The notes under the pieces: model-generated
Databases searched by the model: none
Seen by the model: only the letters and a program-made list of their open reading frames with translations
What the model was told of the DNA's origin: nothing
Source: Schmidtea nova
Taxonomy: Eukaryota
Reading direction: 5' to 3'
DNA length: 64,000 nt
NCBI GenBank assembly: GCA_044892505.1
Contig: CM097883.1
Coordinates: forward strand, 162,812,001 to 162,876,000
Shown: piece by piece, positions 13,560-15,414 of the stretch
Layout of the letters: every line of letters begins with the position of its first letter
How positions within the stretch are numbered: the first letter of the stretch is position 1
Program-made: the position numbers and the translations under genes

Positions 13560-15414
13560 ATTTTTCTAATTTTTTTATGATGATGTCTGAATAATGCGAA
13601 CTCTGCGCACATAGGGCACATCCCTAGAAGCAATTTCCAAGACTATCCCCCGATCTTGAATATGCTGTATGTGGATATGAGTTGTGAAATTATGATTTTT
13701 ACAATTATTATTATGGCATAGATGCCTGAACAACCTGCTACGAATATGCCGAAACTTGTAAATCTTCCACAGATTTTCTTTATTACATTTTTCGCTGCTA
13801 CTTTATAGTGCTCTGGCCCGAATAAGAGGTTGTAATTTGGTTTTCTATCAACTTCTCGATATATTCGTTCTCTTTTAATTATGCTACTCCCCTGTCTCTT
13901 ACTTGGGGAAATATGATTGCTCTCCTTGCTTCCTCTATATCTTCTGTAGTGTAGAATCCTCCTTTTGCAATATCGTTAAACGCTCTAAATTCCACTTTAC
14001 TGTCTAGCTTTGCTGCTTGTAGAATTTCAAGTGGTCTGGCCACCAAGTTTCTGGCAGGTAAAGATATCAAATGATTACCTATCTTGTATAATGGTGATAT
14101 AGCCGGATTACATACTGCTGATCTTGGTGCCGTTCCTTTATTGAATAATTGGTGCGTAACAGGTAACATAAACCTTATTTATCCTCTGAGCATCACTGGG
14201 AATTCAAGTGTGCAACTATTATATTTAGCCACTTCAACTTCTTCTGCTACACATTGGTAACTATAGATTGCTTCTCCCATGATCCTGCCAAAAGTACCCT
14301 GCTCGGTTAACATAGGCATAACTAGATCTGGGTTCACTATAGAAATTGCTAATCAATTTCTAATTATTTCACGATTTTATCTGCAGTCATTCAGGATAAC
14401 CTCCTGATACATGTCTTGCATATTTTTCTGTAGATTGTGATACAGAAAATTGACTTTATTATTAATGTAATTTGTTATTTTGATATCTGTTTTGCACAGT
14501 TTTTCCGCTGCTGGGATATATTTATCTGATATAAATATTCTTTGATAATTTTTTTCGTGTACCGTCACACCATATTTGATTTTCTGGCCTTTCCTTACCA
14601 GTCTAATTGCATCTGTTGCCTCCTTGGATACTAATACTAATGGAGTACATTTTTCATGAATTTCCTCCCTTACTAATTTTTTGATTTTTCGTCCTCCCCA
14701 TACTTCTCCTTTTTTTATTACTTGAGAACCTCGTTCCGTTTAATTTTTGGAATGCCATCCTAATTCACACTAACCTTTCATTGTCTGATATATTAAGGTA
14801 TCGGAAGATGTTCGACAAAATACCCGCTTAATATTGCATTCCGGATGGGTCATCATCTTTCCGGATACTACGTCAAACATCCCTTCTACTACATAATCTT
14901 CCAATTCTACTACATGCTTTATCGCGTTTTCCCCTCTCAACTTGGTGCGTTCATAGCATGAACCATCATCATCGATTGATCCTCCTCTGGTAATAGTTAT
15001 TGCTAGTGCCTTTCCTACTTCTGCCGTAATAGTTATTTCGTCATCTATTTTAAGTGTTCCCGTTCGAAAGACATTTTCATAATCGTCTGGTAGTATTACC
15101 ATAAATCTTGGTATTGATTTCGCTCCTAAAAATGCCGAATAACTGTGTGTCCAACACCAATATTCAAACGTTGCCTTTTGCAACCTACAATCTCTGATCG
15201 TAGTTCTATAAAAATCAGTTTGCTGATATACGTGATACGAGACTTCTTCTAATATCACTTTATCGGGATAAGCTTTCTTGCATTCCACTTTATCAACCAG
15301 TGAGTATATCCTACTCCAACTTGGATTGCTGCAATTATATGCTATTATTGAATTAGTTGGCTTTAACATCCACATAGCTACTAAAAACATAACCAATAGG
15401 TTTAGGAAGCTGCT
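13560..15414 (-). pseudogene. Env-like class III fusion glycoprotein (chuvirus/Jingchuvirales G-like), disrupted, located between gag and pol
   Basis: Signal peptide FLNLLVMFLVAMWML; IIAYNC..YSLVDKVEC; DCRLQ..YWCWTHSYS; NYINNKVNFLYHNLQKNMQDMYQEVILNDC; NPDLV..GRIMGEAIYSYQC..EV..CTLEFPV; IAKGGFYTTEDIEEARRAIIFP; TM FGIFVAGCSGIYAIIIIVKII. Confidence 0.85.

Follow-up and report, generated by a model that had tools for sequence, protein, structure and literature searches.

A decayed Burro-type GAG-ENV-POL element in Schmidtea nova and the likely threading of its sister polyprotein through the ER membrane

Anatomy and decay of the element

The window, that is, the whole 64,000-nucleotide stretch analysed (Schmidtea nova, GenBank assembly GCA_044892505.1, contig CM097883.1, positions 162,812,001 to 162,876,000), carries a Ty3/gypsy LTR element whose features all lie on the minus strand. 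Its pol order, protease, RT, RNase H and integrase (PR-RT-RH-IN), together with the LTRs, agrees with the Gypsy assignment made in a preliminary description of this DNA. The 5′ LTR (18670–23092) is split by a hAT-like DNA transposon (~19249–22759) flanked by an 8-bp duplication, and its outer end meets a stretch of Ns; its pieces at 18675–19224 and 22761–23092 are ~98–99% identical to the 3′ LTR (680–1608, a minimum extent whose inner boundary lies past a TA repeat). The primer-binding site (18648–18666) begins 3 nt past the LTR end and is one base off the site of the unbroken sister families described below.

The gag region (17440–18610) is broken and comprises a capsid-like region (PF03732 retrotrans_gag, E = 1.3e-3) and CCHC knuckles (zf-CCHC, E = 0.074), at 54–71% to sister gag. 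It is followed by a weak and broken ubiquitin-like (Ubl) domain read from the translation (16780–16986), with a possible second one at ~16460–16240, and by a Bcl-2-like domain (15480–15960; PF00452, E = 0.0064, below cut-off) that shares its frame with the start of env. The env gene consists of a predicted internal signal peptide (15349–15411; an h-region with small residues at −3 and −1), a broken ectodomain of a class III fusion glycoprotein (13770–15348; Monjiviricetes/chuvirus-like and HSV gB-type, PF24664), and a transmembrane (TM) helix with a basic cytoplasmic tail (13550–13769; helix at ~13747–13690, KD19 hydropathy 2.45; 76% to sister), the latter two as originally noted. Next comes a retroviral-type aspartic protease (12780–13060; RVP, E = 1.3e-3) with a DSG motif near 13010, broken by a frame change. 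With retrotrans_gag and CCHC upstream and the DSG protease downstream, env indeed lies between gag and protease. RT, RNase H and integrase (5150–12250; 68–82% to sister pol) follow, RT being split by a hAT-like insertion (7618–12086) with an 8-bp duplication. Beyond the integrase lie a broken second membrane protein (4170–5075; signal, beta-sandwich ectodomain and TM helix), which is in frame with pol in unbroken sisters, and a broken ORF2 (2078–4036). ORF2 spans ~690–715 codons in sisters, among which it is conserved (L032:4457–6535; L034:4686–6833); no Pfam family matched it in a scan of sister pieces, and one stretch has what we take, by eye, to be a resemblance to a DEDD-type exonuclease.

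Three further observations concern the surroundings of these genes. The Bcl-2-like domain directly before the env signal had been overlooked in the preliminary description. The two hAT-like insertions are two different DNA transposons, and the one in the LTR has an open 649-codon transposase frame (19417–21366) plus an upstream frame. Past the N run, positions 23279–23480 resemble a fragment of a host metabolic gene, presumably of 2-oxoacid dehydrogenase E2 type as read by eye.

The window copy is dead and encodes no working polyprotein. Its ectodomain frame has six in-frame stops (14772, 14742, 14379, 14355, 14181 and 13881), a short out-of-frame stretch at ~14750–14710 and a frame change at ~13880, ahead of the TM helix; an additional stop lies at 13645, past that helix. 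Two of the 14 family-invariant cysteines are lost. In contrast to the decayed interior, the LTR pair differs at only 19 of 894 aligned bases (~2% divergence). This ~98% identity may reflect a recent helper-driven move of a dead copy, or homogenisation of the LTRs. The nearest other env copies are 82–88% identical and the nearest LTR copies 86–92% (40 candidates scored each), and no LTR was found beside the four nearest env copies within the flanks examined. When stop positions were compared between the window and seven distinct close copies, a single position was shared, occurring in two of the other copies. A chimera of foreign LTRs and interior is excluded: in four other loci (L051, L046, L048 and L059), this LTR is likewise linked to this gag or ORF2.

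Unbroken sister families and their env

In unbroken sisters, Gag, Ubl, the Bcl-2-like domain, env, PR, RT, RNase H, IN and the second membrane protein are encoded in one frame. A search of the same genome placed more than 40 of 150 scored matches (2,684 candidates; counted by eye) in open frames of 3,000–3,570 codons, and a family search brought up another two groups, whose frames span 3,401 and 3,393 codons. Among 30 loci from the genome search, 28 were evaluable, and in 18 of them the frame stays open over at least 300 codons upstream and at least 650 codons downstream of the env start. In Pfam scans of pieces of two sisters, CCHC, env and protease matched within a single frame, with RT, RNase H and integrase behind them; MATH, BIR and ankyrin had no Pfam match in the sisters scanned. 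The sister frames measure 3,393–3,567 codons, in elements of ~14–15 kb. The preliminary description had raised the possibility that intact copies carry env in a separate transcription unit. Since the sister frames are open from gag through env into pol, env is not a separate unit, and that possibility is rejected. The primer-binding site of the sisters, common to several families and apparently resembling the 3′ end of tRNA-Trp, occurs 728 times exactly in this genome (control pattern: 0); thus, the element family is abundant and young here.

Two segments separate Gag from env in these frames. The Bcl-2-like segment of one sister (L063) matches PF00452 at E = 2.2e-4, below the curated cut-off. 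When a five-sequence profile was run against PDB chains, it found Bcl-xL, BOK and Bcl-2 at E = 5e-4 to 3e-3 over BH1–BH2, with designed helical repeats scoring as high as Bcl-xL. The NWGR of BH1 is lost, and dN is 0.36 versus a dS of 2.7 between two unbroken families. The domain precedes env in the window, in the sisters and in the relatives P0001, P0003, P0009 and P0020. As for the Ubl, a sister segment (PF00240, E = 0.054) and the relative P0020 (E = 0.031) both fall below the cut-off.

What is the env glycoprotein? All 11 motif words quoted in the preliminary description were found on the minus strand of the window, in the order given there. AYNC (15342), LVDKVEC (15300), CWTHSYS (15156), YINNKVNFL (14469), QDMYQEVILNDC (14418), GEAIYSYQC (14277), EFPV (14205), GGFYTTEDIE (13962) and IIFP (13917) share one frame, and FTSFGIFVAG (13762) and GIYAI (13726) lie in a different one. 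Three separate pieces of the window pass the curated cut-off of PF24664, Monjiviricetes_fusion (47.7, 128.2 and 35 bits versus 27; E-values of 7.8e-13, 3.4e-37 and 5.4e-09), and are colinear across profile positions 4–592 of 653. Sister envs score 268–306 bits, and none of 14 control genomes gave a match to this family.

We folded an unbroken sister ectodomain, ~60–61% identical to the window env, using a 104-row alignment. The model (mean pLDDT 91, pTM 0.72) has a beta-rich N-terminal half and a central helix of 48 residues. Foldseek matched it to herpesvirus gB in all 37 listed PDB rows (best E = 1.4e-13, TM 0.44) and, among predicted viral structures, best to chuvirus or chu-like G proteins (E = 4e-36 to 1e-32, TM 0.52–0.72). 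By sequence, phmmer with a single env returned no match in the PDB, and an env profile returned weak gB matches only (E = 0.008 and up). All 14 cysteines recur in two named chuvirus G proteins, in five polyproteins from outside records and in four sister families. A comparison of the env genes of two unbroken families gave a dN of 0.088 versus a dS of ~2.7, which is near saturation; env is under strong purifying selection. The chuvirus-like class III fusogen proposed at the outset is thus upheld by significant profile and structure matches to PF24664 (above cut-off three times), herpesvirus gB and chuvirus-type G. Its identification from profiles and a modelled fold as a Monjiviricetes/chuvirus-like, gB-type fusogen is secure, the fusion activity itself being putative. 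Identity as a host gene is rejected. No furin site was found in the sister envs examined, and N-glycosylation sequons number zero in the L031 env and one to five in the others.

A full HMMER search with a sister env returned 1,177 proteins with E ≤ 0.001; given this result, the lack of a match in a word-indexed protein search is not evidence. Among the best 150 of the 1,177, the top full-length matches are long polyproteins (26–38% identity), ten of them with a protease in frame after env (P0001, P0002, P0004, P0005, P0006, P0007, P0010, P0012, P0014 and P0015), and stand-alone G proteins of ~650 residues rank next (21–28%). FastTree was run on 109 rows, namely 99 of the 104 alignment rows (five of low coverage dropped) and 10 env parts; the tree is rooted at the midpoint, its rows were picked by likeness to the query and 86 of them are unlabelled. 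A branch with SH-like support of 99 sets apart the 19 polyprotein-type rows; four of these (P0003, P0009, P0011 and P0013) are fragments in which no pol is shown. The two named chuvirus G proteins share the polyprotein-type side of the midpoint, and a BEL/Pao-linked env (P0070, DUF5641) is placed elsewhere.

The preliminary description took the env for an independent chuvirus glycoprotein capture by a Gypsy element, in a non-canonical position; on this view the capture would be a recent one, made by this lineage at an awkward insertion site. In its favour, sequence, tree and structure agree in placing the G proteins of Tacheng tick virus 4 and Wufeng shrew chuvirus 2 closest among the labelled stand-alone relatives. 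However, they are only 21–27% identical, versus 26–38% for outside polyprotein envs and 40–61% for sister envs, the polyprotein-type rows split off by the well-supported branch just described, and published planarian elements have the same layout. In the printed env domain I of Smed_errantivirus_4, a published close relative, 79 of the first 123 residues are identical to the window copy (64%, by eye; PMC13524379). A recent independent capture is largely refuted, and we regard it as very improbable. Because the polyprotein-type envs form one deep clade together with that relative, the capture of env from a chuvirus-like donor is old and shared and not particular to the window element.

Two observations were made on these outside records in passing. 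P0002, P0004, P0005, P0008 and P0012 have at least two aspartic-protease-like domains after env, and P0004 has one more after the integrase. P0006, a gag-env-pol polyprotein of the env clade, is filed in NCBI as a protein of a Flavobacteriaceae MAG and is most likely animal DNA that was mis-binned.

Membrane topology and proposed synthesis

The signal peptide claimed in the preliminary description exists, but it is not N-terminal: in the window it lies 224 open codons into the frame, behind the Bcl-2-like domain. We scored signals by hydropathy and the (−3, −1) rule in 19 mutually related polyproteins (the window, four sister families and 14 outside records), in which the env N-terminus is found 141 to 1,362 residues into the open frame. 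Small residues occupy −3 and −1 in 18 of the 19, and the same 18 have an h-region with a mean hydropathy of 2.4–3.7 that ends 3–11 residues ahead of the site; P0001 fails this two-part rule. A similar rule held at 160 of 32,140 background positions (0.5%). The predicted cut site is where stand-alone G proteins shed their N-terminal signal, suggesting that the env gene was acquired with its own, now internal, signal. This signal is present with or without Bcl-2 upstream, and thus belongs to env.

How would pol reach the cytosol? The preliminary description saw a topology problem here. Between the env TM helix and the end of the integrase, no hydrophobic helix was found in either L031/L032 or L033/L034. 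An internal signal followed by one stop-transfer helix makes an even number of crossings, which would leave pol cytosolic, and the supposed problem is probably not a real one.

Cellular Bcl-2 proteins are anchored by a tail helix. The Bcl-2-like domain of the element stops at BH2, and its sole tail helix is the env signal, which is predicted to double as the membrane anchor of the Gag-Ubl-Bcl-2 part. The h-region is short, below the 19-residue TM threshold in L031 and L033, and so may not hold Gag-Bcl-2 stably.

The frame does not end with the integrase. In all four sister families examined, it continues into a signal-like segment, a beta-rich stretch of 240–330 residues and a TM helix with a short tail behind it (L032:3322–4275, L034:3750–4682, L064:3–1289 and L066:1–1536). 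The chains end in ETEV, ETFV, ETFV and MTRL, endings that we take to fit the class I PDZ-binding pattern. Among outside polyproteins, P0004 and P0006 follow this plan of signal, ectodomain and TM helix and have an FN3-type motif, but lack a PDZ-type ending; P0014 has the post-integrase signal, with an unclear TM helix. Between two unbroken families, dN is 0.31 versus a dS of 1.8. A model of the protein has a mean pLDDT of 43, with ~70 in the first domain. All rows listed by Foldseek were FN3 or FN3-derived, as weak matches (E = 0.007 at best); VIA gave mixed Ig-like sandwiches with Z at most 5.7, and the Atlas score of 0.82 is a lead only. Pfam fn3 had no match in the segment, a profile search of the PDB gave one match at chance level, and a word-indexed search with the alignment found nothing among longer proteins, a blank that carries no weight as evidence. 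An FN3-like ectodomain is thus only a lead. With its signal and TM helix, the chain would cross the membrane four times, making pol a loop tethered at both ends. In literature searches and in the main text of PMC13524379, we found neither a post-integrase FN3 protein nor a threading or topology model for such polyproteins.

The window holds a Burro-type GAG-ENV-POL element with a decayed env region, and we think it likely that the polyprotein of its sisters is threaded through the ER membrane during synthesis. The process would run as follows: (i) Gag-Ubl-Bcl-2 would be synthesised in the cytosol; (ii) the env signal, retained from the viral G gene, would start translocation from within the chain, and a cut by host signal peptidase ahead of the N-terminus of xxAYDC type would leave the Bcl-2-like part anchored by its tail; (iii) the ectodomain would fold in the lumen and trimerise; (iv) the env TM helix would stop transfer, keeping protease-RT-RH-IN cytosolic; (v) the second signal, past the integrase, would send the beta-sandwich ectodomain into the lumen, the final TM helix ending the chain; and (vi) the element protease would free the cytosolic domains and, with Gag and Pol both held close to Env, budding of particles would take place at that membrane, Env then serving for fusion with another cell.

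Is the long frame translated whole? LTR elements usually produce Gag in excess. Unlike this, translation of one frame yields Gag, Env and Pol in equal amounts (1:1:1), and a second, shorter transcript may therefore exist. Alternatively, Env or Env-Pol could be made mainly from spliced or internally started RNA, with a Met-rich segment as N-terminal signal and Gag from a shorter product, the long frame being seldom translated whole. In L031, L033 and L063 the h-region does open with several Met residues, the Gag excess would be restored, and the env of canonical errantiviruses comes from a separate ORF (PMC6431247). However, at least four families include many copies in which the frame runs open from gag through env to integrase, uninterrupted by a stop behind env, and Met residues are scarce or missing at that position in many relatives from outside records. 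We consider this scheme improbable.

The last step of the proposed pathway is also where a further alternative departs from it. The topology could be the same and Env be used inside the animal without free infectious particles, by budding into the ER or vesicles or by fusion of neighbouring cells, while Bcl-2 and the second membrane protein act on the host cell. The lack of a furin site, the few sequons and the host-modulating cargo (Bcl-2-like and Ubl) would fit such a use, and BURRO1 RNA is reported in differentiated tissues upon loss of piwi silencing. On the other hand, strong purifying selection has kept all 14 cysteines and a complete class III fold, as expected of an entry protein, and gB-type proteins of some families need no furin cut (PMC13524379). 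No report of planarian particles was among the literature matches listed. This alternative, compatible with the threaded polyprotein up to the final step, strikes us as rather unlikely.

A bolder form of the threading model can be put forward tentatively, as a possibility that we do not favour outright. The element would make a flavivirus-style, retrovirus-like particle from a four-crossing polyprotein: signal peptidase would free an FN3-like attachment protein with a PDZ-binding-type tail as well as the class III fusogen, the env signal would anchor a Bcl-2-like death regulator, and Pol would be a cytosolic loop tethered twice. Gag, Env and Pol would thereby assemble together at 1:1:1, with neither frameshift nor splicing needed. 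If true, enveloped retroelements would have an assembly route different from the retroviral one, in a group of animals in which new insertions are transmitted by stem cells.

Comparison with known elements and viruses

The position of env, termed non-canonical in the preliminary description, has already been published, both for Burro (PMC6431247) and for flatworm GAG-ENV-POL elements (PMC13524379). In planarian Burro, Gag, CCHC, Ubi/SUMO-like, BCL2-like, env, PR, dUTPase-like, RT, RH and IN occupy one frame, env matches mononegavirus fusion proteins, and the arrangement is presented as the first in which env sits between gag and pol in frame (Arkhipova and Yushenova 2019, PMC6431247, citing Grohme et al. 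2018 and Jurka 2007 as Burro/GYPSM1 sources). The sisters share with Burro/GYPSM1 the order Gag-Ubl-BCL2-env-PR-RT-RH-IN in one frame between LTRs, with weak Ubl and Bcl-2 matches here. Burro is larger, at 4,873–5,140 codons and more than 30 kb, whereas the sisters are compact, and it carries MATH, BIR and ankyrin cargo that was not matched in the sisters scanned. Because of their smaller frames without this cargo, the sisters are Burro-like and compact, not Burro1–4 itself. The Burro section of PMC6431247 mentions neither membrane topology nor a post-integrase membrane protein.

GAG-ENV-POL elements with a gB-type env are described from flatworms, nematodes and bryozoans, including six in Schmidtea mediterranea, Smed_errantivirus_1–6 (Chary and Hayashi, eLife 2026, PMC13524379). 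According to that paper, such elements are not monophyletic by pol, gB-type ectodomains can have TM segments on both sides, and the table gives no tRNA primer for related elements. Smed_errantivirus_1–6 resemble our element in GAG-ENV-POL order, gB-type env and loci of ~14.5–18 kb. They are intact, as are our sister families, whereas the window copy is broken by stops, frame changes and two insertions and belongs to a different subfamily. In the main text of the paper, the words Bcl, fibronectin, ubiquitin, polyprotein and in-frame are absent.

Related fusogens occur in other settings. Two further kinds of element are cited in PMC13524379. Those of mosquitoes (BEL/Pao, with a chuvirus-like G; Dezordi et al. 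2020) share the fusogen family, the BEL/Pao-linked P0070 lying in a separate part of our tree; those of nematodes (GAG-ENV-POL; Sacco et al. 2022) share fusogen family and gene order. The G proteins of Jingchuvirales/Monjiviricetes and herpesvirus gB have the same cysteine skeleton, post-signal N-terminal motif, long central helix and gB-like fold. In free Monjiviricetes G the signal is N-terminal, whereas in the element env, at 21–28% identity, the signal is internal and the tail runs into pol.

In flavivirus and alphavirus polyproteins, internal signals and stop-transfer helices order the chain, host signal peptidase frees the envelope proteins and the capsid is left on a signal anchor. The parallel is one of working only, and no homology is claimed: the fusogen is of class II there and of class III here, and the element is reverse-transcribing. 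The layout and the fusogen class are already in print, and the window copy is an ordinary member that differs in subfamily. The remaining value of the present analysis is a concrete model for such polyproteins, with internal signals, four crossings, Bcl-2 anchoring and a second surface protein.
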